Positions 8,881 to 37,697 of a stretch of 64,000 nt of DNA are shown one piece after another. The notes under the pieces are model-generated. The model was given only the letters and a program-made list of their open reading frames with translations, had not been told where the DNA came from and did no database searches. Origin of the DNA: an uncultured Candidatus Saccharibacteria bacterium. Its GTDB lineage: Bacteria; Patescibacteriota; Minisyncoccia; JBAYJV01. Location: NCBI GenBank assembly GCA_964577395.1, contig CAZNYQ010000008.1:57319-121318 (forward strand). Reading direction: 5' to 3'. The first letter of the stretch is position 1, and each line of letters begins with the position of its first letter. Both the position numbers and the translations under genes were made by a program.

Positions 8881-9834
8881 ATGGCCAACGAAATTAATTT
8901 ACCCCAAAATCCTCAAATTATTCACCAAAAAGATAATATTACTGATATTCAAATTGATGGATGTTACCCCGGTTATGGTATGACTCTTGCTAATGCCCTG
9001 AGGCGTGTTCTTTTATCTTCTCTACCAGGCAGTGCAATTATTGCATTTAAGATCAAAGGAGTAGATCATGAATTTTCTACTATCCCTAATGTCTTAGAAG
9101 ATGTTATTAAGATCAGCCTTAATCTTAAAAAAGTTTGTTTCTCTTCTAAAAAGCTCCTTTCTGATGAACAATTAAAGGCAACTATCAAAGAAAAAGGTGA
9201 AAAAAAGATTACTGCCGCTGACATTAAAACTCCTGCTGGTCTAGAAGTTGCTAACCCAAATTTACATATTGCTACTTTAACTGATAAAAAAGCTAATTTA
9301 GAAATTGAATTATTTATTACAGGAGGTTATGGCTACGAAAGAGCAGAAGATCGCCGACAAGAGAAATTATCTATCGGAACAATTGCTCTTGATGCTATTT
9401 ATTCACCTGTCATAAAAGCAAGCTATGAAATTGAGGATATGAGAATCGGAGAAAGAACTGACTTCAATCGTATTATTTTTCATATAGAAACAGATGGGTC
9501 TTTAGAAGGCAAGGAAGCTTTACAACAAGCAAGCCAAATTTTATCAGATCATTTCGCTCACCTTGCAAAAATTCAAAAGAAGTTTAAAAAAAGTGCTCCA
9601 GCTAAAAAGGAAAAGACAGTTAAGGAAACTAAATCTAAGGAAATGCCTAAAAAAATTAGCGATCTACAATTAGACACTAAAACTATCAATGTTCTAACTA
9701 AAAATGGCATTAAGAGTATTGCTGGATTAACTAACAGGAAACAAGAAAGCTTACGGCAATTTGACGGAATTGGTAAAAAAACTATTTCTGATATCAATAA
9801 AGCTCTTAAGAAATTTAACCTATCTTTAAAATAA
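8881..9834 (+). CDS. rpoA: DNA-directed RNA polymerase subunit alpha
   Basis: GYGMTLANALRRVLLSSLPGSAI N-terminal domain, plus a C-terminal domain. Confidence 0.9.
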   Translation: MANEINLPQNPQIIHQKDNITDIQIDGCYPGYGMTLANALRRVLLSSLPGSAIIAFKIKGVDHEFSTIPNVLEDVIKISLNLKKVCFSSKKLLSDEQLKATIKEKGEKKITAADIKTPAGLEVANPNLHIATLTDKKANLEIELFITGGYGYERAEDRRQEKLSIGTIALDAIYSPVIKASYEIEDMRIGERTDFNRIIFHIETDGSLEGKEALQQASQILSDHFAHLAKIQKKFKKSAPAKKEKTVKETKSKEMPKKISDLQLDTKTINVLTKNGIKSIAGLTNRKQESLRQFDGIGKKTISDINKALKKFNLSLK

Positions 9835-9842
9835 AGTAATTT

Positions 9843-10229
9843 ATGAAGAAAAGAAAAAGAGGAAGAAAATTCGGCCGTCAAAGAGATCAGAGAAAAGCCT
9901 TAAAGAAGACTTTAGCTGTTTCTTTAATTAAGCAAGAAAGAGTTCAAACTACCCTTGCTAAAGCTAAAGAATTAAGACCTTTTGTTGAAAAACTTGTTAC
10001 TAAGGCAAAAAAAGATAACATAAGCACTTATCGCTTATTACAAAAGTATCTTCCTCGAGAAATTTCTAATAAATTAATTAAAGAAATTGCTCCCAAATTT
10101 AAAGAAAGAGCAGGTGGTTATTTAAGAATTATTAGATTACCTGATCGTCAAAGCGATGGAGCAAAATTAGCTATTATAGAATTTGTTTCTCCTCAAAATG
10201 ACAAAAAAGAATCAAAATCCACAACCTAA
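9843..10229 (+). CDS. rplQ: 50S ribosomal protein L17
   Basis: RKFGRQRDQRKALKKTLAVSLIKQERVQTTLAKAKELRPFVEKLVT. Confidence 0.9.
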   Translation: MKKRKRGRKFGRQRDQRKALKKTLAVSLIKQERVQTTLAKAKELRPFVEKLVTKAKKDNISTYRLLQKYLPREISNKLIKEIAPKFKERAGGYLRIIRLPDRQSDGAKLAIIEFVSPQNDKKESKSTT

Positions 10230-10572
10230 TATTATTGAAATAGACGTTGCTGAAAAAAGTTTAGGAAGAATAGCAAGTCAGATTGCCTCTTTATTAATGG
10301 ATAAAAATAATCCTAATTTCGCACCCTATAAAATAGGTAATAATATTGTTAAAATTATGAACGCTGATAAAGTAAAATTAACCGGCAATAAATTGCAAAA
10401 CAAAAAATATTACCGTCATTCTGGCTACCCTGGATCGTTAAAAGAAATACCATTAAAAAAACTTTTTGAAAAAAATCCTCAAGATGTACTTCGCCAAGCT
10501 ATTTATGGTATGCTACCAAAAAATAAACTGCGTGATCAACGCATTAAAAAAGTTCAATTTATAAATAAATAA
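10198..10572 (+). CDS. rplM: 50S ribosomal protein L13
   Basis: YYRHSGYPGSLKE. ATG at 10198 overlaps the rplQ end. The track ORF starts at an upstream TTG. Confidence 0.85.
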   Translation: MTKKNQNPQPNIIEIDVAEKSLGRIASQIASLLMDKNNPNFAPYKIGNNIVKIMNADKVKLTGNKLQNKKYYRHSGYPGSLKEIPLKKLFEKNPQDVLRQAIYGMLPKNKLRDQRIKKVQFINK

Positions 10573-10586
10573 TCTATCTTAAACTC

Positions 10587-11027
10587 ATGATTGCTATTCC
10601 TAAAACTATTACCAAGAAAAGATTCTATCAGGCCGTTGGTCGTCGTAAGGAATCAACAGCTCAAGTGAGACTATGGACAACAAAGCCTGAACAATCAACT
10701 CAAAAAGGCTATTTTTTTGTTAACGGTAAAACTTTAAAAGAATATTTTAAAAATGATCTCCGATTAGTAAAAATTGCTGAGTCTCCTCTTCAAAAGGTTA
10801 ATTCTGAAGAAAAATTTCTTGTTTCTGTAAAAGTAGAAGGTGGCGGTACCACGGGTCAAGCTGAAGCTATCCGACATGGTTTATCTAGAAGTTTAGTAGA
10901 ATTCTTTCCTAATTTTAGAAAAAAACTTAAGAAAGCTGGTTACCTAACAAGAGATGCTCGCGCCAAAGAAAGAAAGAAATATGGCTTAAAAAAAGCTCGT
11001 CGTGCACCTCAGTGGCAAAAACGTTAA
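10587..11027 (+). CDS. rpsI: 30S ribosomal protein S9
   Basis: C-terminal GYLTRDARAKERKKYGLKKARRAPQWQKR. Confidence 0.9.
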   Translation: MIAIPKTITKKRFYQAVGRRKESTAQVRLWTTKPEQSTQKGYFFVNGKTLKEYFKNDLRLVKIAESPLQKVNSEEKFLVSVKVEGGGTTGQAEAIRHGLSRSLVEFFPNFRKKLKKAGYLTRDARAKERKKYGLKKARRAPQWQKR

Positions 11028-13351: not shown

Positions 13352-13373
13352 CGTTAACAGAAAGACTAGACTG

Positions 13374-13401
13374 TTGACTATCCTTATTCGTATGCTATAA
13401 T
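13374..13401 (+). promoter_or_regulatory. Sigma70-like promoter (TTGACT-16-TATAAT) upstream of rpsL
   Basis: ttgact at 13374-13379 and tataat at 13396-13401, 22 nt upstream of the rpsL ATG. Confidence 0.6.
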
Positions 13402-13422
13402 AAATTTTTCAAATATTACATT

Positions 13423-13836
13423 ATGCCTACATTTAACCAACTCGTCAAAAACCCTCGTAAAAAATCAAAGAAAAAACAAAGCACACCCGCTTTAAAAAAA
13501 TCTTTTAATGTTTTGCAAAATAAACCACGTTATTATAATTCACCTTTTAAAAGAGGAGTAGTAACTAAAGTCTCAACCGTAACGCCTAAAAAGCCTAATT
13601 CTGCTCTACGAAAAATCGCTCGTGTTAGACTAACTAATAATGCTGAAGTCACTGCTTATATCCCGGGTGAAGGACATAATATTCAAGAACATTCAGTTGT
13701 TTTAATTAGAGGTGGTCGTGTTAAGGATTTACCAGGAGTTAGATACCATGTTATTAGAGGAACCCTTGATACCGAAGGCGTAGAAGGCCGTAAAAGACAA
13801 CGCAGCAAATATGGCACTAAAAAACCAGAAAAATAA
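13423..13836 (+). CDS. rpsL: 30S ribosomal protein S12
   Basis: [13 protein letters not shown] ... [10 protein letters not shown]. Confidence 0.95.
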
Positions 13837-16506: not shown

Positions 16507-16610
16507 AGGATTATTGAATTTAAATTTGTATGTTAGTCTGGAGGTCTAGTTTTGGTTCTTTCTTTAATCTAATAATTAAAGGAAAAACAAAGCTCCTTCT
16601 AAATTTAATT

Positions 16611-17807
16611 ATGGCTGAAAAATTTGAACGTAATAAACCCCATGTCAATGTTGGAACAATTGGCCATGTTGACCATGGAAAAACTACCTTAACAGCTGCA
16701 ATACTTAAGGTTTTAGATCTGAAAGGACATAAAACATCTCATAAAAATGTTGATGAGATTGATTCAGCTCCCGAAGAAAAATCTCGTGGAGTTACTATCA
16801 ACTTAGCTCATGTTGAATACGAAACAGAGAAACGTCATTATGCTCACATTGATGCACCTGGCCATGCTGATTATATTAAGAATATGATTACAGGAGCCGC
16901 TCAAATGGATGGCGCTATTTTAGTAGTTTCTGCAGCTGATGGTCCTATGCCTCAAACAAGAGAGCATATTCTTTTAGCGCGTCAAGTAGGTGTACCATCA
17001 ATTATTGTTTTCCTTAATAAAACTGATCAAGTTGACGATCCAGAGTTGGTTGATCTTGTTGAAACAGAGGTTAGAGAACTTCTCAATAAATATGAATTTG
17101 ATGGTGATAAAGTACCAGTCATTCGAGGTTCCGCCTTAAAGACCTTAGAAGAAGCTAAGGGAGCAGATGATGAAGTAGCTAAGCCAATTTTAGATCTAGT
17201 GAAAGCTCTCGATGAAAATATTCCTAGTCCTGAGAGAGAAATTGATAAACCTTTCTTAATGCCTATTGAAGATCTTTTTTCTATTGAAGGAAGAGGTCTA
17301 GTTGTGACGGGCCGTATTGAAAGAGGCAAGATTAAGCTCAGCGATGAAATAGAAATTGTTGGCCTTAGAGATACTCAAAAAACAGTCATTACAGGCATTG
17401 AGATGTTTAATAAAAGTCTTGATGAAGGACAAGCTGGCGATAACGCCGGTATTTTATTAAGAGGTGTTAAAAAGACTGACGTTGAAAGAGGACAAGTCCT
17501 AGCTGCTCCAGGGACAATTACTCCTCATACTGAATTTGAAACTGAAATTTACGTCTTAAGTAAAGAAGAAGGTGGACGTCATACACCTTTCACAGCTGGA
17601 TACAAACCACAATTTTATATCAGAACAGCTGATGTAACTGGAGAAATTACCTTGCCCGAAGGAACAGAGATGGTTATGCCAGGCGATACTATTACCCTTA
17701 AGGTAAAACTTCAAAAACCAGTTGCTCTTGAAGAAAAGCAAAGATTTGCCTTACGTGAAGGTGGTCATACTGTTGGTGCTGGTGTTGTTTCAAAAATTAT
17801 TAAATAA
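16611..17807 (+). CDS. tuf: Elongation factor Tu
   Basis: [30 protein letters not shown] at 16611. The track ORF begins 81 nt upstream at a non-native start. Confidence 0.95.
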
Positions 17808-17838: not shown

Positions 17839-18276
17839 ATGGCTAAAACTACTAAATCAACCTCAAAAAAAAATACTTCAAAAACTTCTAAAAAAGCAAA
17901 GAAAGTTAAGAAAGTTTCTCCTAAGAAAACGTCAACTAAGAGAAAGAGCGCATCTCAGAAAAAAGAAGAAGAATTACAGAGAATTCGAATTAAGATCCGT
18001 GCTTATGATCATAGACTAATTGATGAAAGCGCTCGTAAAATTATTGATAATACTATTCGACAAGGCGTTAAGTTTTTAGGACCTGTTCCGCTCCCAACAG
18101 AAAAAAGAAAATGGACAGTCAATCGATCAACTTTTGTTCATAAAGATGCCCGTGATCAGTATGAAATGAGAATTTATAAAAGGATTATTGATATTATTAA
18201 TCCAGGATCTAAGTTGATCGACTCTCTATCAAGACTTGATTTACCTGCAGGAGTAGATATTGAAATAAAATATTAA
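17839..18276 (+). CDS. rpsJ: 30S ribosomal protein S10 with about 45-aa Lys-rich N-terminal extension
   Basis: S10 core QRIRIKIRAYDHRLIDESARKII...GPVPLPT, preceded by KTTKSTSKKNTSKTSKKAKKVKK... Confidence 0.9.
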   Translation: MAKTTKSTSKKNTSKTSKKAKKVKKVSPKKTSTKRKSASQKKEEELQRIRIKIRAYDHRLIDESARKIIDNTIRQGVKFLGPVPLPTEKRKWTVNRSTFVHKDARDQYEMRIYKRIIDIINPGSKLIDSLSRLDLPAGVDIEIKY

Positions 18277-18376
18277 AATATTTATTCTTTATGACAACCT
18301 TCAGTTTGTCACTTTACTTAAGGTTTACATTTAGTTTCGTATAGCATTTAACCGTTAAATAAGGCTTTGCCTTGGA

Positions 18377-18398
18377 CCCGGTTAAGACCGGGTTTTTT
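18377..18398 (+). terminator. GC-stem hairpin plus U-run between rpsJ and rplC (terminator/attenuator candidate)
   Basis: cccggt-taag-accggg followed by tttttt. Confidence 0.5.
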
Positions 18399-18452
18399 GG
18401 TAAAAAACATATGGTTGATAAAGAAAATGTTAAAAAAACAAAAATATATTTT

Positions 18453-19013
18453 ATGTTAGGGCTTAAAGATAAGAGTGCCCAAATTTTTGACCAGGCTGGC
18501 GCAATTGTTCCAGTAACTTTAATTAAAGTTAAGCCTTGTCAAATAACTCAAGTCAAGACATTAAAAAAAGACGGTTATTCTGCTGTTCAAATAGGTTTAG
18601 TAAGGAATAACAAAAATGACATGTGGCTAAAAGAAAAACGCTTACAAAACACTGATGACATTAAAGTAGGACAAAAAATTAATATGGCAGATATTTTTAA
18701 GCCTGGTGATAAAATAGATATAACAGGCATCTCAAAAGCAAAAGGTTTTCAAGGTACAGTTAAGCGTTATAACTTTAGAGGAGCGTCTGCTACTCATGGG
18801 ACAAGACATGCTCACAGACAACCAGGTTCCATTGGTTCCACAGGTCCAGCTCGTGTTTTCAAGGGCACTAAAATGTCAGGTCGTATGGGAGGAGATACAA
18901 TAACTGTTAAAAATTTGACTATTGCGGCCATAGATCCAGAAAAAAACATTTTAGCTGTTAAGGGAGCTGTCCCAGGTAATCGTAAAGATTTACTCCAAAT
19001 TAATAAAGCTTAA
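18453..19013 (+). CDS. rplC: 50S ribosomal protein L3
   Basis: MLGLKDKSAQIFDQAGAIVPVTLIKV matches the L3 N-terminus. The ATG is at 18453. The track ORF begins upstream, overlapping the hairpin. Confidence 0.9.
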   Translation: MLGLKDKSAQIFDQAGAIVPVTLIKVKPCQITQVKTLKKDGYSAVQIGLVRNNKNDMWLKEKRLQNTDDIKVGQKINMADIFKPGDKIDITGISKAKGFQGTVKRYNFRGASATHGTRHAHRQPGSIGSTGPARVFKGTKMSGRMGGDTITVKNLTIAAIDPEKNILAVKGAVPGNRKDLLQINKA

Positions 19014-19015
19014 TC

Positions 19016-19660
19016 ATGAAAATTCCTATTTACAATAAAACAGGTAAGGCAACGCAAGAATTAGAATTTCCTAAAATAATGGAAAAAATCGGTTTTTCTC
19101 ATGATCTAATTCATCAGGTAATAACAGTTCAGCAGAAAAACCAACGTCATGTTTGGGCTCATACCAAAGATCGTTCTGAGGTTAGAGGAGGCGGCAAAAA
19201 ACCTTGGCGTCAAAAAGGAACTGGTAGAGCACGTCACGGATCTATTCGATCTCCTATTTGGAAAGGTGGCGGTGTTACTTTCGGTCCTCGTAAGGAACGT
19301 CAACTCAAAAAAAGAGTTAATCATAAAATGAAAATTAAGGCTTTCCAAATGGTTCTAGCTGAAAAAATACACCAAAAAGTATTTTTCATAATACAAGACT
19401 TAGATGAAAAAAATATTAAGACAAAAATATTATTAAGTATTTTTAATAAACTTCCTAATTGGCAGGCTAAAGATAGCTGTTTATTAGTCTATCAAAAGGA
19501 ACAAAAAAATATTCAATTAGCAGCTCGTAATTTAAAAAATGTAAGTTTAGTAACAGCTCAAAATCTCAATACAGCTAATATGATGAACGTTAAAAATATT
19601 GTGGCTACCCAAAAAGCTGTCCAAGAGATTCTCAGAAGGCTTCAAAAGCCATCATCTTAG
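19016..19660 (+). CDS. rplD: 50S ribosomal protein L4
   Basis: L4 family, in operon position. Confidence 0.9.
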   Translation: MKIPIYNKTGKATQELEFPKIMEKIGFSHDLIHQVITVQQKNQRHVWAHTKDRSEVRGGGKKPWRQKGTGRARHGSIRSPIWKGGGVTFGPRKERQLKKRVNHKMKIKAFQMVLAEKIHQKVFFIIQDLDEKNIKTKILLSIFNKLPNWQAKDSCLLVYQKEQKNIQLAARNLKNVSLVTAQNLNTANMMNVKNIVATQKAVQEILRRLQKPSS

Positions 19661-19675
19661 CGTTAATATAATATT

Positions 19676-20011
19676 ATGAATAAGACAGATAATTCTAAAA
19701 AACTACAACAGAATAATTGGGCTAAGATTATTAAAGCTATTAAAGCTCCTCATGTAACAGAAAAAGCTACTTTGCAATCTGAAAATATGCAATATTCTTT
19801 TAAAGTACCAAAGCAAGCTAATAAAATTCTTATTAAACAAGCTTTAGAAGATTTATATGGCAAAAAAGTAGCTCAAATTAGAACAATTAATGTTAAAAGA
19901 AAAGCACGAGGAAAAACTGCTCGCAGAGCAAGTGGTTTTAGATCAGGCTATAAAAAAGCTATTGTAAGCTTTGCAAAGGGAGCAAAAATTGATATCTTTG
20001 CTAATAAATAA
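19676..20011 (+). CDS. rplW: 50S ribosomal protein L23
   Basis: Operon position and size. Confidence 0.85.
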   Translation: MNKTDNSKKLQQNNWAKIIKAIKAPHVTEKATLQSENMQYSFKVPKQANKILIKQALEDLYGKKVAQIRTINVKRKARGKTARRASGFRSGYKKAIVSFAKGAKIDIFANK

Positions 20012-20014
20012 ACT

Positions 20015-20797
20015 ATGAGTAACAAAAATACCTTAAAAAAGAATAGAAAATTTATTAAGGCAAAGAAAGCTAAAGGTGGCCGCTCACGGGGAAAAATTAC
20101 AGTAAGACATCAAGGCGGCGGCCATAAGCAGAAATACCGCATCATTGATTTTAGCCGCTTGAAGAATAAAGATATTCCCGCTAAGATAGAAAGTATTGAA
20201 TATGACCCTAATAGAAATGCTTCAATTGCAAGTATTATTTATGAAAATGGTGCTCGTAATTATATTTTAGCTCCTCATAAGGCAAAAATAGGTGATAAAA
20301 TTATAACATCCGATAAAGCGGCCATAAAACAAGGTAATCGTTTACGTTTAGAAAATTTACTAGCCGGTACTTCTATCTATAATATAGAAATACAGCCTGA
20401 ACAAGGCGGTAAATTAGTAAGGTCAGCTGGCAATTACGCCCAAATGATGGGAAAAGAAGGTAAGTATGTTCAACTCATGATGCCTTCTAAGGAAATTCGC
20501 CTTATCCTTGGTAAATGTTTTGCAACTGTTGGTCAGGTGTCTAATCCTCAAGCCAACACCAAAAAATTATATAAGGCAGGTCAAAATAGATGGCGGGGCA
20601 TTCGCCCTACTGTTCGAGGTTCAGCAATGAATCCTGTTGATCATCCGCATGGCGGTGGAGAAGGACGTGCGCCTGTTGGATTAAAATATCCTAAAACCCC
20701 TTGGGGTAAACATGCTTTAGGTAAAAAAACTCGGAAGAAAAAATATTCCGATAAATTAATTGTAAAAAGAAGAAAAAGAAAAAAACGTAAAAAATAA
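20015..20797 (+). CDS. rplB: 50S ribosomal protein L2
   Basis: GRNxxGxITxRHxGGGHK-like [15 protein letters not shown]. Lys/Arg C-terminal tail. Confidence 0.95.
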
Positions 20798-20799
20798 TC

Positions 20800-21105
20800 A
20801 TGGCTAGATCACTTAAAAAAGGACATTTCGTTGACGAAAAATTACTGAAAAAAATTCACGATAAAAAGCCTGAACAAGGTCCTATTAAAACATGGTCACG
20901 CCGATCAACTGTTATTCCTGAAATGATAGGATTTACTTTAGCAGTCCATAACGGTAAAGAACATATTCCCGTTAAGATTAGTGAAGAAATGGTTGGTCAT
21001 AAATTAGGTGAATTCTCACACACGCGTAGATTTATTCGCCATGGTGGACGTCTTCAGAGAGAAGAAGAAAAAGCAGCTTCTCAGAAACGAAAATCAACTG
21101 CTTAA
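20800..21105 (+). CDS. rpsS: 30S ribosomal protein S19
   Basis: [11 protein letters not shown]...HNGKEHIPV. Confidence 0.9.
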
Positions 21106-21119
21106 ACTTATATTTTAAT

Positions 21120-21641
21120 ATGACTATCAAAGCAAAATTAAGTTATTTAAATATTTCTCCGCGTAAAGTTAGGCTCGTAGCTAACTTTATTAAAGGTATG
21201 TCTGTCAAAGAAGCGGAAAATCAACTATCGGTTTTAAGAAAAAAAGCTAGCAAGCCACTTTTAAAATTATTAAAGAGCACTCTTGCAAATGCCCATCATA
21301 ATTTTAAAGTCGAAAATGAAGATAGTCTTTATATTAAGAGTATTCAGGTTGATCAAGGTCCTACTTTAAAAAGATGGCAACCAAGGGCTTTTGGTCGTGC
21401 TTATATTATTCGTAAGAGAACTTCTCATGTTAAATTAGAGCTAGATGTTAAGACAGGCAAGATAGAGAAGAAGGAAAGCGCACCTGTTAGCCAACCAACT
21501 CTTCAAAAAGAAGAAACTTCTCGCCATACGACAAAAAAAGATAGCAAGAAAAAATCATTTCTTAAGAAAAAACCAGCTCGTCAACAAGATAAAACAGCGT
21601 CATCTTATAAGGGCGGGTTCTTTCAAAGAAAAGCCGTTTAA
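21120..21641 (+). CDS. rplV: 50S ribosomal protein L22 with about 55-aa C-terminal extension
   Basis: L22 core, then a basic/Ser-Thr-rich tail. Confidence 0.85.
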   Translation: MTIKAKLSYLNISPRKVRLVANFIKGMSVKEAENQLSVLRKKASKPLLKLLKSTLANAHHNFKVENEDSLYIKSIQVDQGPTLKRWQPRAFGRAYIIRKRTSHVKLELDVKTGKIEKKESAPVSQPTLQKEETSRHTTKKDSKKKSFLKKKPARQQDKTASSYKGGFFQRKAV

Positions 21642-21658
21642 AATAATCAATCAATTTT

Positions 21659-22309
21659 ATGGGTAAAAAAGTCCATCCAAAATCAATTCGACTCTCTATA
21701 AATCAAAGCTGGTCCTCTCAGTGGTTTGCGAAATTAGCTAAGGGAGGTGCTAAAAAATATCGAGAGAATTTACAAGAAGATCTACGATTAAGAGAATATA
21801 CTAAGAAACGCCTTAAAAGAGCTGCTATTGAAAAAGTAATTATTAAAAGATCTCCTAAGCAAGTTAATCTTATCATTTACACTGCCAGGCCTGGTTTAGT
21901 AATAGGAAAAAACGGTAAAGAAATTGATGCGCTTAAACAAGAACTTAATAAGATAATTTCTTCTGATGCAGCTTTAAAAATTGACATCGAAGAAGTCCGC
22001 AAACCAGACACCAGAGCAGAATTATTAGCCCAAAATATTGCTGAACAATTAGAAAGACGACTTCCTTATAGAAGAGTCCTTAAAAAAACTCTTGATAAAA
22101 TTAATCTTAACAATGAAATTAAAGGAGTTAAGATTAAAATTTCAGGTCGTCTAAATGGTGCTGATATTGCAAGATCTGAATGGTTAAGCAAGGGCAGTCT
22201 TCCTCTGCAAACACTTAAGGCGTATATAGAATATGCTCAGGCAACAGCTGGCACAACTTATGGATCGGTAGGAATTAAAGTTTGGATTTATAAAAAAAAT
22301 AGTGATTAA
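21659..22309 (+). CDS. rpsC: 30S ribosomal protein S3
   Basis: KH domain and the S3 C-terminal domain. Confidence 0.9.
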
Positions 22310-22323
22310 AAAAAATAATTTTT

Positions 22324-22731
22324 ATGTTATTACCTAAAAAAGTAAAACATCGTAAATGGCAAAAAGGCACATATAAAGGCAAAGCTCAAAAAGGCAATCA
22401 GCTTAGCTTTGGAAAGTTTGGATTAAAAGCTCTTGATATAAAAAGGATTACTTCTCGTCAAATTGAAGCAGCGCGCCGTACTTTAACTAGACATCTTAAG
22501 AAAGAGGGTAAAAGTTGGATCAGAATTTTTCCTGATAAACCTATTACTAATAAAGGTGTTGAGGTTTCTATGGGCGGAGGTAAAGGAGATGTTGATCATT
22601 TTGTAGCTGTTGTGAAGCCTGGTCGCATTATTTTTGAAATTGATGGTGTAGAAGAAAGTCTTGCCCGCGAAGGTCTACAGAAAGCATCACATAAATTACC
22701 TGTTAAAACTAAATTTGTTAAGAGGTCTTAG
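22324..22731 (+). CDS. rplP: 50S ribosomal protein L16
   Basis: [15 protein letters not shown]... Confidence 0.95.
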
Positions 22732-22736
22732 AAAAT

Positions 22737-22940
22737 ATGAAAAAAAATGCTCAACTACGACAAAAAGATATTCCTGAATTGAAAAAAGACGTTAAAAATT
22801 TACGTAAAAAATTAGTTAATCTAAAATTCGAGAGAGAAACAGGATCTCTCAAGAAAGTCCATCAAATTAAACAAAACAAAAGAGAATTAGCTCGTCTTGT
22901 AACTATTTTGTCAGAAAAAGAAAAAGAAACAAAAAAATAA
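22737..22940 (+). CDS. rpmC: 50S ribosomal protein L29
   Basis: Size and position. LRKKLVNLKFE. Confidence 0.85.
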   Translation: MKKNAQLRQKDIPELKKDVKNLRKKLVNLKFERETGSLKKVHQIKQNKRELARLVTILSEKEKETKK

Positions 22941-22949
22941 TTAATATTT

Positions 22950-23210
22950 ATGTCTAATACTCAAAAAAAACAACCAAAACACCGTCGCCGTCTTAAGGGA
23001 ACAGTTGTGTCAGATAAAATGGCTAAAACTGTTACAGTTGAAGTAATGACTTTAAAAAAACATCCGATATATCAAAAAAGATACCGCACCTTTAAAAAAT
23101 ATCTTGCTCATCACCAAAATAATGTTAAGATCGGCGATAAAGTTATCATTGAAGAATGCAAACCTTTTAGCAAGAAAAAGAAATGGCAAGTTGTTAATAA
23201 AAATTCCTAA
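22950..23210 (+). CDS. rpsQ: 30S ribosomal protein S17
   Basis: LKGTVVSDKMAKTVTV. Confidence 0.9.
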   Translation: MSNTQKKQPKHRRRLKGTVVSDKMAKTVTVEVMTLKKHPIYQKRYRTFKKYLAHHQNNVKIGDKVIIEECKPFSKKKKWQVVNKNS

Positions 23211-23216
23211 AAATAT

Positions 23217-23582
23217 ATGATTCAAGCAGGCACAAAATTAAATATTGCTGATAACACAGGAGCTAAGAAAATCCAATGTATTAAAGTAATTGGCGGATCA
23301 CGTCGCCGTTATGCTGGGATAGGAGATATTATAGTAGCTTCAGTTAAAGAAGCAGAGCCTCGTAAAACAGCTAAAAAAGGTGAAGTAGTTCGAGCAGTCA
23401 TCGTCCGTCAAAAAAAACCTTACCGACGTCAAAACGGCACTTATTTGAGGTTTGATGAAAACGCTGCTGTTATAATAGACAATAAAGAACCTAAGGGAAC
23501 AAGAATTTTTGGACCCGTTCCTCGGGAATTAAGAAAGAAGGATTTCAATAAAATTATTTCTATGGCAAAAGATATTATTTAA
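23217..23582 (+). CDS. rplN: 50S ribosomal protein L14
   Basis: [17 protein letters not shown]. Confidence 0.95.
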
Positions 23583-23590
23583 AAACATCT

Positions 23591-23905
23591 ATGAACCGCT
23601 TAAAGAAAAATGACAAAGTATTAATTTTAAAAGGCAAAGACCGCTCTAAAACCGGTCAGATTTTACATGTTTTACCTAAAAAAAATCAAGTTGTCGTAGA
23701 AGGATTAAATTTAGTTACTCGTCACGTCCGACCACGCCGGCAAGGCGAAAAAGGACAAAGAGTTCAAGTTCCCGCCCCTATAGATTCTTCTAATATTAAA
23801 CTTATTTGTCCTAAATGTAAAAAACCAACTAGGGTTAGCTTTCAACAAGATGCTAAAAAAAAGAAAGTCAGGATCTGCAAGAACTGTAAGGCTATTATAG
23901 ATTAA
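23591..23905 (+). CDS. rplX: 50S ribosomal protein L24
   Basis: KKNDKVLILKGKDRSKTGQI (KOW). Confidence 0.9.
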   Translation: MNRLKKNDKVLILKGKDRSKTGQILHVLPKKNQVVVEGLNLVTRHVRPRRQGEKGQRVQVPAPIDSSNIKLICPKCKKPTRVSFQQDAKKKKVRICKNCKAIID

Positions 23906-23914
23906 TTTAAAAAA

Positions 23915-24457
23915 ATGTCCTATTTTAAAAAAACTTTCAAAAAAGAAATTATTCCTCGATTAAAAAAACAGCTTAATATAAAAAATGAGCTAGCTTTGCC
24001 TAAATTAGAAAAAGTTGTTCTTAATTCAGGTATTGGCAATTTAAAAGACAATAAGGAAGATATGAAACAAAGCATTGAGGGCATGAGCTTAATTACAGGC
24101 CAAAAACCGATCGTCACTAAAGCTAAAAAAGCTATTTCAGCTTTTAAAATTAGAGAAGGTATGCCTGTAGGCATAAAAGTCACCCTGCGAGATCAAAAAA
24201 TGTATGATTTTATTGAAAGACTTATAAAAATATCTTTACCACGCTGGAGAGAGTTTGAGGGAATTAACCCTAAATCAATCGACGAACAAGGTAATTTAAC
24301 AATTGGTTTGAAAGATGTTAGTATTTTCCCAGAGCTTAGTCAAAATAAAAAAGTAGAGTATAAATTTGGCTTAGAGATCACAATAGTCGTTAACGCTAAA
24401 AACAGAGAAGAAGCTCTTGAATTATATAAACAACTAGGTTTCATTATTAAAAAGTAA
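23915..24457 (+). CDS. rplE: 50S ribosomal protein L5
   Basis: Operon position. L5 family. Confidence 0.9.
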
Positions 24458-24467
24458 CTTTATTCTT

Positions 24468-24653
24468 ATGGCTCGTAAATCTTTAATTGCTAAATCAAAT
24501 AAAAAACCTAAGTATCGCACTCGTGTTGTGCGTCGTTGTTCTCGTTGCGGAAGATCACGTGGTTATTTACGTAAATTCGGTCTTTGTCGTATATGCTTCA
24601 GAGAATTAGCTAATAAGGGCGAACTTCCTGGTGTTAAAAAATCAAGTTGGTAA
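24468..24653 (+). CDS. rpsZ: 30S ribosomal protein S14 type Z (zinc-binding)
   Basis: 61 aa with [23 protein letters not shown]. Confidence 0.9.
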
Positions 24654-24684
24654 GTTGTTATTAATTTAGAATACATTTAAAAAT

Positions 24685-25065
24685 ATGGATTTAATAAGTA
24701 ATATGTTAACTCAAATTAGAAACTCTTCTATGGTTCAAAAAGAAACCTGTCGAGTTCCTGCATCAAAAATCACAGAAAAGATTGCTTTAATTTTAAAGAA
24801 ACGCGGCTTTATTAAAGATGTTAAAAGAAAAAATGAAGATAAAAAATCGTTTTTAGATATAAAATTACGTTATATTGATGAACAACCTGTTATTTCTTCT
24901 ATTAAACGCATGAGCCGATCAGGTAGACGCATTTATGAAAATCATAAGAATTTAAAATCTCCTAAATTTGGCATTGTTATTGTTTCAACATCTAAAGGTA
25001 TTATGACAGCTCAAGAAGCAAAAAAACAACAAATAGGCGGAGAGGTTATTTGTCAAGTTCGTTAA
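24685..25065 (+). CDS. rpsH: 30S ribosomal protein S8
   Basis: DLISNMLTQIRN... Confidence 0.9.
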   Translation: MDLISNMLTQIRNSSMVQKETCRVPASKITEKIALILKKRGFIKDVKRKNEDKKSFLDIKLRYIDEQPVISSIKRMSRSGRRIYENHKNLKSPKFGIVIVSTSKGIMTAQEAKKQQIGGEVICQVR

Positions 25066-25066
25066 T

Positions 25067-25615
25067 ATGTCTAAAATTGGAAAACAACCTATTCAAATTC
25101 CCGATAAAGTTACCGTTAATTTACAAGATAATAAGTTAACTATTACCGGACCAAAAGGAACTTTGGAAAAAGAAATTCCCCAAATTCTTGAAATTAAAGT
25201 AGAAAATAATAAAATAACTATAAAGCCAAGAAAAATTACTAGCAAACAAACCAAAGCTCTTTGGGGAACTTGGAGAGCTTTAATAGCTAATATGATAACA
25301 GGCGTTTCTCAAGGCTTTAAAAAGATATTAGAATATGAAGGCGTTGGATATAGAGCAACAATGGAAGGCAATAATTTAAAATTAGCATTAGGGTTTTCTC
25401 ACCCTATTCAGCTTACGCCTCCTGAAGGTATTAGTTTTACAACAGAAAAAAATACTATCACAGTTGAAGGGATTGACAAAGCTTTAGTCGGTAAGGTAGC
25501 AGCTAAAATAAGAGGCTACAGGCCTCCTGAACCATATAAAGGTAAGGGTATCCATTATAAAGATGAGGTCATTCGACGTAAAGAAGGCAAGAAATCTGTT
25601 AGTGCTGGCTTCTAA
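25067..25615 (+). CDS. rplF: 50S ribosomal protein L6
   Basis: [16 protein letters not shown]. Confidence 0.9.
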
Positions 25616-25623
25616 TTATTATT

Positions 25624-25965
25624 ATGTCTCAAAAAAAGAAATTTAAAACACAAAGAATTCATAAAAAGATTAAGAAATTAACTGAACGCCCTCGTTTAGT
25701 GGTTTTTCGTAGCAATAAAAATATTACTGCCCAAATTATTAATAATCAGGGAAACAAAGTTATAACAGCCGCCTCAAGTGTTAAAATGAAAGATTCTAAA
25801 GACAAAACTAAAACAGAGATTGCTCAAGCAATTGGTAAAAAAATTGCCCAACAAGCTATCAAACAAAAAATTAAAAAAGTAACATTTGATAGAGGTGCTT
25901 ATAAATATCACGGCAGAGTTAAGGCCTTAGCCGAAGCTGCTCGTAAGGCAGGTCTAGATTTTTAA
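25624..25965 (+). CDS. rplR: 50S ribosomal protein L18
   Basis: [18 protein letters not shown] ... [15 protein letters not shown]. Confidence 0.9.
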
Positions 25966-25978
25966 ATATTTTCAAAAT

Positions 25979-27256
25979 ATGTTTCAAAAAATTATTCATA
26001 TTTTCCGTATTAAGGATTTAAGAAAAAAAATTCTTTTTGTATTATTTATTTTAGCGCTTTCTCGTTTGATCGCATCTATCCCTATTCCTGGTATTGACAC
26101 CCAAAGGTTGGAAGAGTTTTTTAGCGGTAATCAATTTTTTGGACTATTAAATGTCTTTACAGGTGGTGCAATGAGCAGATTATCAATTGCTATGCTAGGA
26201 TTAGGCCCTTTTATTACAGCAACAATTATTATGCAATTACTGACCATGATTTTCCCACGTCTTAAGGAAATGTATCAGGAAGCTGGAGAACAAGGAAGAG
26301 AAAAATTTAACCAATATGCTCGTATTGCAACAGTTCCTTTAGCTATGCTACAATCATTTGGCTTTTTAAATTTACTTAAAAAACAGCAAGTTATAGGAGA
26401 ACTTTCTTCTTTTGATTTGATAGCTAATATTATTGTCATTACAGGCGGCGCTGTTCTCCTTATGTGGCTAGGAGAATTAATCAGTCAAAAAGGGATAGGT
26501 AATGGTATTTCTTTGTTAATTTTCGCAGGTATTGTAGGTGGAATTCCTATTCAAATCGCTCAAACTGCTTCTATATGGGATCCTGCAAAAGTACCAGCTT
26601 ACTTACTTTTCTTCATAACATCACTTATAGTTATTGCTGGAGTAGTTTTTATTACTCAGGGACAAAAGAATATTCCTGTTTCATATGCTAAACGAATTCG
26701 GGGACGCCGCATGTATGGGGGCGCAAGTACATTCTTACCTTTAAGAATTAATCAAGCTGGCGTTATTCCTATTATATTTGCAATGTCAGTTTTATTATTC
26801 CCAGGTATGATTGCTACTTTTTTATCTGGTTCTGACAATGCTACCTTAGTTAGAATAGCAAGTACTTTAAACAATATTTTTCAAAATCAAACTTTTTATG
26901 CCTTTGCATACTTTATCTTAGTTGTTGCTTTTACATACTTTTACACAGCAGTTACTTTTGATCCTAATAATGTAGCTGATAATCTCCAGAAAAGCGGTGG
27001 TTTTATTCCAGGCATCCGTCCTGGAGAAAAAACTTCTCAATATATCCATTACGTTCTTAATCGTATCACCTTAGTGGGAGCAATTTTCTTAGGAACAATT
27101 GCTATTCTTCCAATGTTAGTGCAAGGCACAACAGGGGTAGAAACTTTTCAATTCATGGTTGGTGGCACTGCTCTTTTAATTGTTGTCTCGGTAGTGCTTG
27201 AGACAATGAAACAAATTAAAGCTCAATTAACTATGCGAGATTATGAAACTTTTTAA
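25979..27256 (+). CDS. secY: Preprotein translocase subunit SecY
   Basis: 10-TM protein with the SecY pattern. It directly follows rplR. Confidence 0.95.
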   Translation: MFQKIIHIFRIKDLRKKILFVLFILALSRLIASIPIPGIDTQRLEEFFSGNQFFGLLNVFTGGAMSRLSIAMLGLGPFITATIIMQLLTMIFPRLKEMYQEAGEQGREKFNQYARIATVPLAMLQSFGFLNLLKKQQVIGELSSFDLIANIIVITGGAVLLMWLGELISQKGIGNGISLLIFAGIVGGIPIQIAQTASIWDPAKVPAYLLFFITSLIVIAGVVFITQGQKNIPVSYAKRIRGRRMYGGASTFLPLRINQAGVIPIIFAMSVLLFPGMIATFLSGSDNATLVRIASTLNNIFQNQTFYAFAYFILVVAFTYFYTAVTFDPNNVADNLQKSGGFIPGIRPGEKTSQYIHYVLNRITLVGAIFLGTIAILPMLVQGTTGVETFQFMVGGTALLIVVSVVLETMKQIKAQLTMRDYETF

Positions 27257-27924
27257 TGGCTAATCAAATTAAAATTGTTATTCTTGCTGGTCCTCCCGGA
27301 TCAGGCAAGGGTACTCAAGCTCACCTTTTAAAAGATAGAAAAGGTTTTTATCTTCTTCAAACAAGCCAAGTTATTAGAGAAAAATTTAAAACAGACCCTG
27401 ACAATCCAGATGTTAAGGCTAGTAAGAAAGCTTATCAAGAGGGTGGTTTGACTGACGGCGCTGTTTTAGCTCGTTGGATAGGAGAGAAACTCTTAGATAT
27501 CAGAGAGCAAATTCTCACAAAAGGAGTTATCTTAGATGGCGCCGCACGCACGACTAGAGAAGCTCAATCAACTTTTGAGCTAATTAAAGAAAATTTCGGA
27601 GCTGATAAATTAAGGCTCTTTTTTATTAAAGTGTCTGCTCAAGAAACTCTTCGAAGAAACTCTAAAAGACTTATTTGTGAGAAATGCCTTAGACCACTTA
27701 ACCCTAAGTTAATTGGCAAAGTAAATAAGTGTCCTCATTGCGGAGGAAAATTAGTTCCCAGGGAAATGGATAACCAAGAGATTATCCAAAAAAGACTTGA
27801 AGTATATGAAAAACAAACCTTGCCAGCTATTAATTTTCTCAAAAAGCAAGGAGTTGTAATTGAAATTAACGGAGAGCAGCCCGTTGAAAGCGTCTATCGA
27901 GACATAGAAGCCCATCTTGATTAA
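27256..27924 (+). CDS. adk: Adenylate kinase (zinc-lid type)
   Basis: ILAGPPGSGKGTQ P-loop and a CEKC...CPHCGG lid. Confidence 0.95.
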   Translation: MANQIKIVILAGPPGSGKGTQAHLLKDRKGFYLLQTSQVIREKFKTDPDNPDVKASKKAYQEGGLTDGAVLARWIGEKLLDIREQILTKGVILDGAARTTREAQSTFELIKENFGADKLRLFFIKVSAQETLRRNSKRLICEKCLRPLNPKLIGKVNKCPHCGGKLVPREMDNQEIIQKRLEVYEKQTLPAINFLKKQGVVIEINGEQPVESVYRDIEAHLD

Positions 27925-27944
27925 AAATATCTTAATCTTAAAAT

Positions 27945-27970
27945 GTTAGATTGTTGTAATCTAACTTTTT
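27945..27970 (+). terminator. Intrinsic terminator after adk
   Basis: 8-bp stem gttagatt/aatctaac with a 5-nt loop, then ttttt. Confidence 0.6.
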
Positions 27971-27972
27971 CA

Positions 27973-28001
27973 TTGCCAAATATTTAAAATATTGATAAAC
28001 T
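27973..28001 (+). promoter_or_regulatory. Sigma70-like promoter (TTGCCA-17-TAAACT) for map
   Basis: Located 10 nt upstream of the map ATG. Confidence 0.4.
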
Positions 28002-28010
28002 AGACTCCTT

Positions 28011-28763
28011 ATGAATATTCAAATTAAAACAAAAGAAGAGATAAGTGTTATGCGACATAATTGCCAAGAATTAGCTCGTATTGCTAAAACATTAAAAAAT
28101 ATGAGCAAGCCAGGTATTTCAACTTTTCAATTAGAAGAAGTTGCGCAAAAAATGATGGCTGATTTTGGCGCTAAGCCTTCTTTTCAAGGATTTCAAGGAT
28201 ATCCGGCAGCTTTATGTACTTCAATTAATGATGAAGTGGTACATGCCGTACCAAAAATGAACAGAGTATTAAAAAAAGGAGATATCGTTAGTATAGATCT
28301 AGGACTATATAAAAATGGTTTTCATTCAGACATGGCAATAACTTTTTACTTTCCTCCTATTAGTAAAAAAGCGCACCAGTTAATTAAAACAACTCAAAAA
28401 GCTCTCAATAATGCTATTAGTATTGTTAAACCAGGTCTTAAAATAGGTGCTATCGGAGCTATTATTCAAAAAACAATTGAGAAAAAAGGCTTTTCTGTTA
28501 TGAAAGATTTAACTGGTCATGGTATTGGAAGGGACCTTCATGAAGATCCTTGTATCTTTAATTACGGTTCTCCCAATCAAGGTATCACTTTAAAGCCAGG
28601 TATGGCAATTGCTATAGAACCGATGGCTTCAATGGGTAGTGATCAAATTAAACAAGGACCTGATGGTTTTGCCTTTGTAACAAAAGATAATTCATTATCA
28701 GCCCATTTTGAACACACTCTGGCTGTTATGGATAATGGCTATGATATTTTAACTAAAATTTAA
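28011..28763 (+). CDS. map: Methionine aminopeptidase type I
   Basis: Pita-bread fold metal ligands (D...D...H...E...E pattern). 250 aa. Confidence 0.9.
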   Translation: MNIQIKTKEEISVMRHNCQELARIAKTLKNMSKPGISTFQLEEVAQKMMADFGAKPSFQGFQGYPAALCTSINDEVVHAVPKMNRVLKKGDIVSIDLGLYKNGFHSDMAITFYFPPISKKAHQLIKTTQKALNNAISIVKPGLKIGAIGAIIQKTIEKKGFSVMKDLTGHGIGRDLHEDPCIFNYGSPNQGITLKPGMAIAIEPMASMGSDQIKQGPDGFAFVTKDNSLSAHFEHTLAVMDNGYDILTKI

Positions 28764-28776
28764 ACCTAATAATCCT

Positions 28777-29169
28777 ATGAATCTTTTAGGTATTGATTAT
28801 GGAGATAAAAGAGTAGGCGTGGCAATCACAACAGACAATTGGGTAAAACCCCTAACAACTCTTATAAATACATCTGATCAAGAAGTTATTGATAAAATAC
28901 AAGAATTGGTAAGCTTAAATGCTATTAATAAAGTTATTTTTGGAATGCCTCAGCCTTTGAAAACTCAAGCAAACGAACGTTCCAGGATAACCCAAGAATT
29001 TGGCGAGAAATTAAAAAAAAATTTAGCTGTTCCTCTCATATTTACAAGTGAAATTTTCACTTCAAAATTAGCAAAACGATCGGCTTACACTAAAAAACAA
29101 AAGCAGCAAGTTGATGCACGAGCTGCTTGTTTTATTTTAGAAAATTATCTTAAAAAAAATGAATCCTGA
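28777..29169 (+). CDS. ruvX: RuvX/YqgF putative pre-16S rRNA nuclease (Holliday junction resolvase-like)
   Basis: LGIDYGDKRVGVAIT N-terminal motif. 130 aa. Confidence 0.8.
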   Translation: MNLLGIDYGDKRVGVAITTDNWVKPLTTLINTSDQEVIDKIQELVSLNAINKVIFGMPQPLKTQANERSRITQEFGEKLKKNLAVPLIFTSEIFTSKLAKRSAYTKKQKQQVDARAACFILENYLKKNES

Positions 29170-31667: not shown

Positions 31668-33158
31668 ATGAAAAATATTAAAAAAATATTTCAAGATTTA
31701 GAAAAATGTTACGTTTTTTTTGGTTTAGGGGTAAATGCTTTTAACCGCATAGGCCCAGAAAACTTTTTAGAAAATTATCATATTTTATCACTCCGGGATC
31801 CTTTAGAAAATAAACTTATTAAAAAAGATATAAAAATTTTTGCACTTGAAGAAGGTATAGACAATAAACATCTTAATGCTCCTCGCAATTCCAATACAGT
31901 TATCAAACATCCCAAAACCCAAGCTTACATCCAAAAGCACAGTCAAGAAAAACAGCCAGTTTTTATAGTGTATAAGCCTTTCCTAGCGATGCAGAAAATA
32001 GCTAAAGATAAGAAATGGATACTAGCGACTAATCCTTATAAATTTGGCAAACAACTCTTTGAAAACAAGATTCTTTTTCGCGATATACTCCAAAAAATGG
32101 TATTACCTGTCCCTCCAGGCACAGTTTGTAAGAATACAAAAGAACTTACAAAAAACTTCTCAAATTTTCAAAAAAAATATGGTTCTCCGCTTGTTATTCA
32201 GCATCCAACTAGAGGAGGAGGCAGGGGAACTTTTTTCATAAATAACAAAAAAGAGCTTGAAAAAATCCTACCTGCCCTACAAGAGACCAAGATTCTAGTT
32301 CTAAAATATGTTAAAGGTATTTCTCCTAGTATTACAGGTTGCGTTACCCCTTGGAAAATATTCCATACTTTTCCGCAATATCAAGTTTTAGACATGCCTG
32401 AATGCTATAACTTAGAAACTAAAATGGGCGATGGTTTATGGTGTGGACATGATTGGTCTTTTTCAGCTAAAAATATCGATCAAAAAACAGCTCAACAAGC
32501 TTATAGAGCGACTAAAAAAGTAGGGGAGTATTTAAAGAAAAAAGGTTATAAGGGAATTTTTGGTTTAGATTTTATTCAAGACGAAAAAACTGGCACATTA
32601 TATATAGGAGAATGTAATCCTCGTTTATTAGGATCTTTTCCCGCTTTAACAATGGTTCAATTAAAAAATAAAGAGGTTCCCATCTTAGCTTTACACTTAT
32701 TAAGCTTTCTTAATCTTACTAAAGAACAAAACAATATTATGCGACACATGGCAAATGAAATTCAGGAGCTTATGAAAACACCCAAGCAAGGAGCTCAGTT
32801 AGTTATTCATAATCAAGAATGTGGTTGGGCAAGAAATCAAAGTATTATTAAGCCAGGTGTGTATATCGTTAAAAAAAATCAACTTCACTTTGTGAGACCC
32901 GGCTATAAACTAGAGCACCTTAAACAGACCAATGAATTTCTTTTATCAGATGGACTACCCCATAAAAATGACCCTTTTAGCCCAAATAGACGTATTATGC
33001 GACTAATTACTCAGAAAGAGGTGCTTTTAAACCATTATCAGCTAAATCCTTGGAGCAAGGAAGCAGCTCGAATATCGTATAAATCATTAAAGATAGTTAA
33101 GGTAAAACTATTTCGTTTGAAAAGATTTTTTAATCCACGATTCATGTTAAAAGGTTGA
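31668..33158 (+). CDS. ATP-grasp domain protein of unknown substrate specificity
   Basis: Gly-rich loop IQHPTRGGGRGTFF and the C-terminal ATP-grasp signature GIFGLDFI...GECNPR. The roughly 150-aa N-terminal region and 150-aa C-terminal region are unassigned. Confidence 0.6.
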   Translation: MKNIKKIFQDLEKCYVFFGLGVNAFNRIGPENFLENYHILSLRDPLENKLIKKDIKIFALEEGIDNKHLNAPRNSNTVIKHPKTQAYIQKHSQEKQPVFIVYKPFLAMQKIAKDKKWILATNPYKFGKQLFENKILFRDILQKMVLPVPPGTVCKNTKELTKNFSNFQKKYGSPLVIQHPTRGGGRGTFFINNKKELEKILPALQETKILVLKYVKGISPSITGCVTPWKIFHTFPQYQVLDMPECYNLETKMGDGLWCGHDWSFSAKNIDQKTAQQAYRATKKVGEYLKKKGYKGIFGLDFIQDEKTGTLYIGECNPRLLGSFPALTMVQLKNKEVPILALHLLSFLNLTKEQNNIMRHMANEIQELMKTPKQGAQLVIHNQECGWARNQSIIKPGVYIVKKNQLHFVRPGYKLEHLKQTNEFLLSDGLPHKNDPFSPNRRIMRLITQKEVLLNHYQLNPWSKEAARISYKSLKIVKVKLFRLKRFFNPRFMLKG

Positions 33159-33337
33159 AATAACTTTTAAGAGAGAGAAATAATTAGAGAAGTGAAAATG
33201 AGGATAAATTGTTAACTTCGCACATTGTATATTATGCGACAAATTATTAATGCAACTTGATAACCTCTTCTCTGTTTAGCTTATTTTTTTAAATCTTTTC
33301 TGTCTAGCCCTTTTTGGCCTTATTTTAGAAACATGAC

Positions 33338-33369
33338 GCACGAGATGCTCCTCTCGTGCATTTTTATTT
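33338..33369 (+). terminator. Intrinsic terminator after the tpiA-pgk-ATP-grasp unit
   Basis: gcacgag-atgctcct-ctcgtgc followed by atttttattt. GC-rich stem in an AT-rich spacer. Confidence 0.65.
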
Positions 33370-33566
33370 ATTATGAGGGTAAAACTATATTTAATTATTC
33401 ACTAAAATTAAAAAATCTTAAAAGTAGTTCTTATTTTTCTTTTTTTTATTTTCACTTAAAATTAAAACAATAAAATAGAAATAAAAATAAAAAATAGTCT
33501 TAGCTTAAGGAAAATAGAGAAATTAAATAAAAAAAACAGTTTTTTCATCTTATCTTCTATAAAAAA

Positions 33567-33596
33567 AGAATCTTCTTTTAAAAAGATTTTTTTATT
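33567..33596. terminator. Bidirectional hairpin terminator (serves ddl on the minus strand)
   Basis: aaaaaaagaatctt-cttttaaa-aagattttttt, with A-run and T-run on both sides. Confidence 0.4.
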
Positions 33597-33668
33597 ATCT
33601 TATCATCTACTTTAGCCCACTTCTATGTCGTATAATATCATACGCTTTTTGCCATAAAAATCTATAAT

Positions 33669-34778
33669 TTAAAAAAAAGAATTTCCCTTAAGGTCGCATA
33701 ACATAAAATTCTTTTTTTGTCTTCTCTGTTGATGCTTTTTATTAAACCTCTCTTCTGCTAAATTCACTAATTCATCTAAAAGATCTTCATATTTTAAGCC
33801 TGACGCTTCCCAAAGTTTTGGATACATGCTTATTTTCGTAAAACCAGGAATAGTGTTAGGCTCATTTAAGTAAATCTTACCTGTCCCCTTTTCTACAAGA
33901 AAATCTATTCTTGCCATACCTGATAGTTCAAGAATTTTAAATGTTTTAATGGCAATCTTCTGAATTTTTTTAACTGTTTTATCGGAAAGCTGAGCTGGAA
34001 TAATAAGTTGAGAAGCTTTTCTACCCTTATCGAGATATTTTGCTTTATAACTATAGAATTCTCTAGATGTTATAATCTCTCCCGGAAGAGATACTTTAGG
34101 ATCATTATTGCCCAAAACAGAACACTCGACTTCTTTTGCTTCAATACCTTGTTCTATTAATATTCTTTCTCCATATAGAAAAGCTTTCTGAATAGCCCTT
34201 TTAAGTTTCTCGTTATTGCCTACTTTACTAATACCAATACTTGAACCTAAGCATGCTGGTTTAACAAAAACTGGCCAATCAAATTTATCAATAATGTTCT
34301 TAATAGTTTCTTTACCAAATTCATTCCTTCTAATTGATAGCCATGGAAGAATTTCTATTTTCTCTGTTTCAAAAATTTTCTTTTGCACTATTTTGTCCAT
34401 GCCTAAAACAGAACCATATACATCTGCTCCTATGTAAGGCAGCCCTATCATCTCAGACAGTCCTTGTATGGTTCCATCCTCTCCGTAAGGACCGTGAAGG
34501 ACTGGAAAAATAATATCAACCTTTTTTTTAACATTTCTCTTTGCAATAATTCTTTTAATCAAATCTTTTTTTTCTCCTGTAAAATTTTTAAGTAATAGAT
34601 TAATGCTTTTTTTATGATTCAACCATTTTCCTTTTTTATCTATTGCTAGGGGAAAAATATTGTATTTTTTTGGGTTAAAGCCTAAAATTACTGATTGAGC
34701 TGATTGAAGACTAACTTCATGTTCAGCAGATTGTCCTCCGAAAATAATGAGAATACCCTTTTTCTTCTTATGTCGCAT
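33669..34778 (-). CDS. ddl: D-alanine--D-alanine ligase
   Basis: ATP-grasp Ddl pattern (ILIIFGGQSAEHEVS N-terminus). 369 aa. Confidence 0.9.
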   Translation of the reverse strand: MRHKKKKGILIIFGGQSAEHEVSLQSAQSVILGFNPKKYNIFPLAIDKKGKWLNHKKSINLLLKNFTGEKKDLIKRIIAKRNVKKKVDIIFPVLHGPYGEDGTIQGLSEMIGLPYIGADVYGSVLGMDKIVQKKIFETEKIEILPWLSIRRNEFGKETIKNIIDKFDWPVFVKPACLGSSIGISKVGNNEKLKRAIQKAFLYGERILIEQGIEAKEVECSVLGNNDPKVSLPGEIITSREFYSYKAKYLDKGRKASQLIIPAQLSDKTVKKIQKIAIKTFKILELSGMARIDFLVEKGTGKIYLNEPNTIPGFTKISMYPKLWEASGLKYEDLLDELVNLAEERFNKKHQQRRQKKNFMLCDLKGNSFF

Positions 34779-37671: not shown

Positions 37672-37697
37672 AAAAAAAGGGGAAATACTCCCCTTTC
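37672..37697 (-). terminator. Intrinsic terminator after the 190-aa ORF (minus strand)
   Basis: Minus-strand aaagggg-agtattt-cccctttttttt. Confidence 0.55.

Follow-up and report, generated by a model that had tools for sequence, protein, structure and literature searches.

The gene string L18-S5-(L30)-L15-SecY is among the most conserved in bacteria and archaea. In the spc operon of E. coli, the order is L14-L24-L5-S14-S8-L6-L18-S5-L30-L15-SecY-L36, as described by Cerretti et al. (1983, as cited in PMC9297842). For CPR bacteria, it has been documented that uL30 is absent throughout, that uL1 was lost in a subgroup of the Parcubacteria and bL9 in several phyla, and that uS5 and uL15 normally adjoin (PMC9297842). 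The corresponding CPR-type spc cluster without L30, which reads L18-S5-L15-SecY-Adk-Map, is present in Candidatus Portnoybacteria GCA_001819605.1, and clusters of this type have been described by Brown et al. (2015) and Tsurumaki et al. (2022). Furthermore, a set of nine ribosomal proteins, uS5 and uL15 among them, is kept without exception in 214 genomes of less than 1 Mb (PMC7782861).

The locus that we describe here lies in a 64-kb window, by which we mean the whole stretch of DNA that was analysed (positions 1-64000). An intact S10/spc string in canonical order is encoded on the + strand at 17839..25615, and its members are rpsJ, rplC, rplD, rplW, rplB, rpsS, rplV, rpsC, rplP, rpmC, rpsQ, rplN, rplX, rplE, rpsN, rpsH, and rplF. 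These assignments are based on open reading frames and, for S8, L6, and S10, on Pfam, and the remaining labels were obtained by Pfam analysis of the identical genes of contig L001. The canonical order L14-L24-L5-S14-S8-L6-L18 is thereby found on one strand (ORFs 23217-25965), with rplR as its last gene (25624..25965, + strand; L18 of 113 aa, PF00861, E=3.9e-35), whose C-terminus is intact when aligned with those of relatives. The rplR stop at 25965 is followed by a gap of only 13 nt, 'atattttcaaaat' (25966..25978, + strand), after which secY starts at 25979. It is this spacer that occupies the usual site of S5, (L30), and L15 in other bacteria, and it contains neither a remnant of an S5 or L15 gene nor a terminator. 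The secY gene (25979..27256, + strand) encodes a protein of 425 aa (PF00344, E=2e-102), the N-terminus of which (MFQK...) is 2 aa shorter than the 427-aa form (MRWLQK...) of most canonical-order relatives. Downstream of secY, Pfam identified adk, map, and ruvX on the same strand (27256..29169), so that adk and map are in their expected distal position (25979-28763 including secY). The gene boundaries at 25965 and 25979 given in the preliminary description are thus exact according to both ORFs and Pfam.

S5 does not follow immediately downstream of L18, since secY comes after the 13-nt spacer, and L15 is not found immediately upstream of secY, neither in the window nor in its flanks. L30, which would be located between S5 and L15, is also missing, as expected for CPR; its absence had been attributed to a known CPR trait, which is correct (PMC9297842). 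In comparison to the E. coli operon, the locus has the same L14-L18 order and the same position of secY as the distal gene of the ribosomal protein string, but it lacks S5, L30, and L15 between L18 and SecY, there is no L36 after secY, and a Shine-Dalgarno-like motif is present upstream of only 1 of 33 genes. The resemblance to the L30-less cluster of Portnoybacteria is closer, as the S10-L18 content and order are the same, L30 is absent from both, SecY, adk, and map are encoded on the same strand, and the SecY proteins are 63-68% identical and belong to the same phylogenetic neighbourhood. Unlike in that cluster, however, S5 and L15 are missing as well, L18 abuts SecY, and ruvX follows map. 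The S5-L15 pair that is typical for CPR between L18 and SecY is present in the relatives and missing in the clade to which this genome belongs. The losses of uL30, uL1, and bL9 known from CPR are superficially similar in that a gene is not found at its usual place, but no natural dispensability is known for uS5 and uL15. The CPR ribosomal protein literature examined (PMC9297842) makes no mention of a removal of S5-L15 from the spc string. We therefore regard the locus as a CPR-type spc cluster that underwent a lineage-specific rearrangement and that is new in the removal of S5-L15.

As S5 and L15 could in principle be present at another position in the vicinity, we analyzed the whole 64-kb window by tblastn with the S5, L15, and L30 proteins of E. 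coli and B. subtilis, which gave no match below E ~1, and with S5 and L15 of Portnoybacteria, the nearest canonical relative, which gave no match either. For S5 and L15, profile HMMs were then constructed with 46 Parcubacteria sequences and run with --max, i.e., with all filters off, against six-frame ORFs of at least 25 aa. The best hit in all six frames had E=0.018 and fell on L17, while positive controls reached 1e-53 to 1e-70. Small ORFs for rpsE or rplO that might have been overlooked, one of the cases that would have argued against the preliminary description, are therefore not the explanation. No Pfam family was assigned to the ORFs at 1623-5223, 37696-38268, and 55960-57618, which were also checked by Pfam at E up to 1; they encode membrane, coiled-coil, or basic proteins and gave no S5/L15 signal. 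On contigs that were reached by exact-protein match, the next 10 kb past each window end contained neither S5 nor L15 nor L30. Together, tblastn and HMM searches demonstrated that ~82 kb around the junction, ~36 kb on its upstream side and 47 kb on its downstream side, contain neither S5 nor L15. The two genes had earlier been said to be necessarily encoded elsewhere, which holds in so far as they are not within this range, and that they reside at another locus is what we infer.

The junction between L18 and SecY was found in nine independent assemblies from JGI and ENA, which represent six SecY lineages with 73-100% identity. An identical SecY is encoded directly behind L18 on contigs of three separate JGI samples, which contain the same organism. 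The same junction is present with a 77% identical SecY (P0006) on the 768,753-bp JGI contig Ga0272441_10000001, with a 73% identical SecY (P0016) in two JGI samples, with 76% and 75% identical SecYs (P0010 and P0013) in two ENA assemblies, and with a 74% identical SecY (P0007) from ENA. The spacers within the clade vary in sequence and in length (13, 17, 17, 23, and 27 nt), and in three aligned junctions the C-terminus of L18 and the N-terminus of SecY are intact. Neither S5 nor L15 was found in the ~20 kb around secY of five other lineages of the clade. As the junction recurs across assemblies and lineages with differing spacers, it is a real rearrangement and not an assembly error.

In the phylogenetic context, the SecY homologues form ~16 clusters with 73-100% identity to the query, all of 425-426 aa and starting with MF(Q/E/D)K or MLEK, and the next matches, at most 69% identical, are from Portnoybacteria-like Parcubacteria. 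One further SecY, P0046, has the clade-like N-terminus and is encoded on a contig that begins 31 nt upstream of secY. The SecYs of the clade are labelled in NCBI only as 'bacterium' or 'Candidatus Paceibacterota bacterium', and one of them, MFA6437431.1, is encoded on a 360,807-bp contig of a MAG. Membership in the CPR/Parcubacteria (Paceibacteria) is indicated by SecY matches named Portnoybacteria, Parcubacteria, or Paceibacterota and by the absence of L30, and a GC content of ~31% together with the 768,753-bp contig from the clade reveals a small, AT-rich genome. In simple neighbour-joining trees of this one protein, SecY, the clade forms a single group outside the Portnoybacteria-like groups. 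The closest outgroup SecYs that could be examined, P0017 (68%), P0020 (67%, Candidatus Portnoybacteria GCA_001819605.1), and P0095 (67%), all belong to canonical L18-S5-L15-SecY loci, and these are the only three outgroup loci that were anchored by SecY. Loci that were found by S5 gave the same picture: 52 of 52 loci from species-representative GTDB genomes, identified with the Portnoybacteria S5, are canonical, as are 79 of 80 metagenome loci where the flanks suffice, the latter being the best 80 among at least 600 matches listed. The view that the break is unusual is thereby well supported, as ~130 related loci retain L18-S5-L15-SecY, a number from S5-anchored loci that by design are blind to further lineages without S5 at that site.

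In the one exception among these loci (L106, FWPU01007078.1, 9478-17927), an 87-aa ORF and large surface-protein-like genes come after S8-L6-L18-S5, and neither L15 nor SecY is encoded within 7.5 kb; either the string is broken at another point here or the contig is chimeric. In a contig of a GTDB MAG (L040, 1389-3080), ~1.7 kb are inserted between L18 and S5. Besides these two cases, the super-operon is interrupted behind map in most Portnoybacteria-like relatives, as 40 of 54 loci lack the alpha operon at this site; in these 40, mostly from relatives, none of the genes searched for was found after map, and a few relatives retain IF1-L36-S13 there. The positions of all these breaks differ from the one described here, and an exact L18|SecY junction was observed in no locus outside this clade, but in all of its sampled lineages. 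In all five in-clade loci (L012, L067, and L150-L152), ruvX follows map, an arrangement that occurs in none of the relatives. The ribosomal proteins within the clade are only 54-63% identical (window versus L012), and the gene order from EF-G to ddl is nonetheless conserved. This low identity implies that the clade is old and that the junction has been stable for a long time, and we conclude that the junction is an old derived trait of one deep, fast-evolving Paceibacteria clade and no recent accident.

The S5 and L15 genes of the clade themselves were not found, neither in the ~82 kb of sequence nor in two collection scans that were anchored by S5. The scan of species-representative genomes was carried out with the Portnoybacteria S5 and exact 8-mers, so that a divergent S5 would escape. 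For the scan of metagenome contigs, we used an alignment of S5 proteins with a reconstructed ancestral sequence at its top, which was chosen to favour the clade, and there was no in-clade locus in the best 80 among at least 600 matches listed. As a calibration, we determined how S8, L6, L18, and SecY of the clade perform in such comparisons, and all four were in the bottom quarter of the similarity ranking versus the consensus of relatives. The same bottom-quarter rank was obtained versus L153, a possible sister lineage. Because the proteins of this long branch rank so low, similarity searches that are seeded from relatives would miss the S5 and L15 of the clade.

Taken together, the locus very probably originated from an ancient, clade-specific rearrangement, in which rpsE-rplO were removed from the string and S5 and L15 came to be encoded at a distant locus. 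The event would have taken place in the ancestor of one deep Paceibacteria lineage, placed by SecY beside Portnoybacteria-like groups, at a time when L30 would already have been gone, as in all CPR. Given the intact genes on either side and the short spacer, the event can be described as a precise removal of the adjacent rpsE-rplO pair between rplR and secY. A functional second copy of S5 and L15 would have had to be established elsewhere before this deletion, since a clean deletion of two indispensable genes would otherwise not have been viable. Such a second copy may have originated from duplication or transposition, or may have been acquired from a foreign source, and S5 and L15 would now be produced at the distant locus with their own expression signals. 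This order of events is, as the distant locus itself, inferred. The presence of S5 and L15 elsewhere in the genome is supported by the fact that uS5 and uL15 were never lost in the 214 tiny genomes.

A special case of relocation would be that a horizontally acquired S5-L15 took over and the native operon copy was then deleted. The need for a pre-existing second copy agrees with this scenario, and our data are silent on the source of that copy. Neither of the two S5 scans, which in the metagenome collection covers the best 80 among at least 600 matches listed, revealed an S5 of the clade that resembles those of relatives. A missing in-clade S5 is, however, equally expected for a vertically inherited, fast-evolving copy, and as there is no positive evidence for a foreign origin, we consider a displacement by acquired genes unlikely.

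Very improbable is the scenario that the clade truly lost uS5 and/or uL15, which would extend the CPR losses of uL30, uL1, and bL9, or that it replaced them by proteins that are beyond recognition by the S5 and L15 profiles. Neither gene was detected in the ~82 kb here or in ~20 kb around secY in five lineages of the clade, the two S5-anchored scans of the collections gave no in-clade S5 (the metagenome scan again in the best 80 among at least 600 listed), and the ribosomal proteins of the clade evolve fast. Moreover, ftsW comes after L11, L1 is missing from the sequence covered, and uL15 knock-outs of E. coli are viable according to Shoji (2011, as cited in PMC7782861). However, the searched sequence amounts to only ~1/10 of a roughly 0.77-Mb genome, and the failure of the scans is explained by the method, namely by the exact 8-mers, by the evaluation of the best 80 among at least 600 listed, and by the bottom-quarter ranks of the proteins of the clade. 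Together with the retention of uS5 and uL15 in 214 of 214 tiny genomes (PMC7782861), this makes a relocation far more likely than a loss. The third alternative, an assembly or binning artefact in which a collapsed or chimeric rplR-secY join dropped S5-L15 from the contig, has virtually no chance of being true. The window comes from metagenome-type data, but nine assemblies from differing samples, pipelines, and archives (JGI, ENA) share the junction, it is found in six divergent lineages with spacers that are unlike in sequence and length (13-27 nt), the flanking genes have full length, and one of the carrier contigs comprises 768,753 bp; the mis-assembly that had been named beforehand as a case against the break thus fails as an explanation.

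With relocation as the preferred reading, the clean excision is a rare genomic change that is stable across the clade and can be used as a clade-defining marker. S5 and L15 serve as single-copy markers in completeness estimates, and L15 is one of the 16 syntenic ribosomal proteins that are used for phylogenies of the CPR and of the tree of life. As S5 and L15 would not be on the ribosomal contig in this clade, concatenated alignments as well as completeness estimates are expected to be biased for these organisms. The relocation would also free S5 and L15 from any coupling that acts on the spc string, and secY is now placed directly behind rplR, which raises the question of stoichiometric expression. 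Most likely, the clade 'only' relocated the two genes, and there is a small residual chance of a genuine loss. In case of a loss or replacement, the ribosomes of the clade would function without two proteins that are kept even in the smallest known bacterial genomes, and if both genes were absent altogether, this would be a major surprise for ribosome biology.

As rplR and secY belong to one + strand array and are separated by 13-27 nt, and as no terminator-like site was found between L18 and SecY, secY is probably transcribed together with the S10/spc string, just as it is where it follows rplO. Within the scanned region, the strongest + strand terminator-like site after the junction is a GC-rich, bidirectional terminator-like hairpin at 33338..33361, where the + and - strand gene arrays converge. 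This convergence extends over 33158-33669, and the maximum of the cumulative GC skew is at ~30-33 kb, which could reflect a replication terminus or merely a coding-strand bias. With respect to translation, the Shine-Dalgarno-like motifs were searched within 21 nt upstream of the genes, and the single motif belongs to one of the 33 + strand genes at 8881-31668; judged from the sequence, translation initiation in this array seems to be largely Shine-Dalgarno-independent. S10 (17839-18276) has 145 aa and carries a Lys/Ser/Thr-rich N-terminal extension of ~45 aa, which fits the enlarged uS10 reported for CPR, and in the ORF of EF-Tu (16530-17807), ~30 codons precede the GTPase domain.

Another displaced part of the super-operon, rpoA-rplQ-rplM-rpsI (8881..11027, + strand), is located directly after ftsA-ftsZ (block 6038-11027). 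The genes that usually lie ahead of rpoA, those for S13, S11, S4, IF1, and L36, are absent from the whole 64-kb window. Between rpsI and rpsL, murA and mreB are found (11002-13836), and the S12-S7-EF-G-EF-Tu string is not preceded by rpoB and rpoC. To the right of the window, ~4-7 kb past its end (L008, 5204-7501), secE-nusG-rplK are followed directly by ftsW/rodA, and L1, L10, and L7/L12 were not detected at this locus; the arrangement may correspond to the known uL1-less subgroup of the Parcubacteria. The right 10-kb flank also encodes uvrC, secG, pgi, and RNase J. In the left flank, ~1-7 kb left of the window (L004/L006, 1794-7884), there is a defence-type island with genes for an EcoRI-like methylase, GmrSD/HNH, an SMC/AAA ATPase, and GH15. 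This island is present in two assemblies, and the contig of a third assembly stops at the island border, so the island is probably strain-variable. No tRNA genes and no Rfam families at gathering score were found in the 64 kb (window 1-64000). Between murG and gltX, a 190-aa basic protein with a pI of ~10 and without a Pfam family is encoded on the - strand (37696-38268), and L067 contains an unannotated 182-aa gene in the same murG-gltX position.
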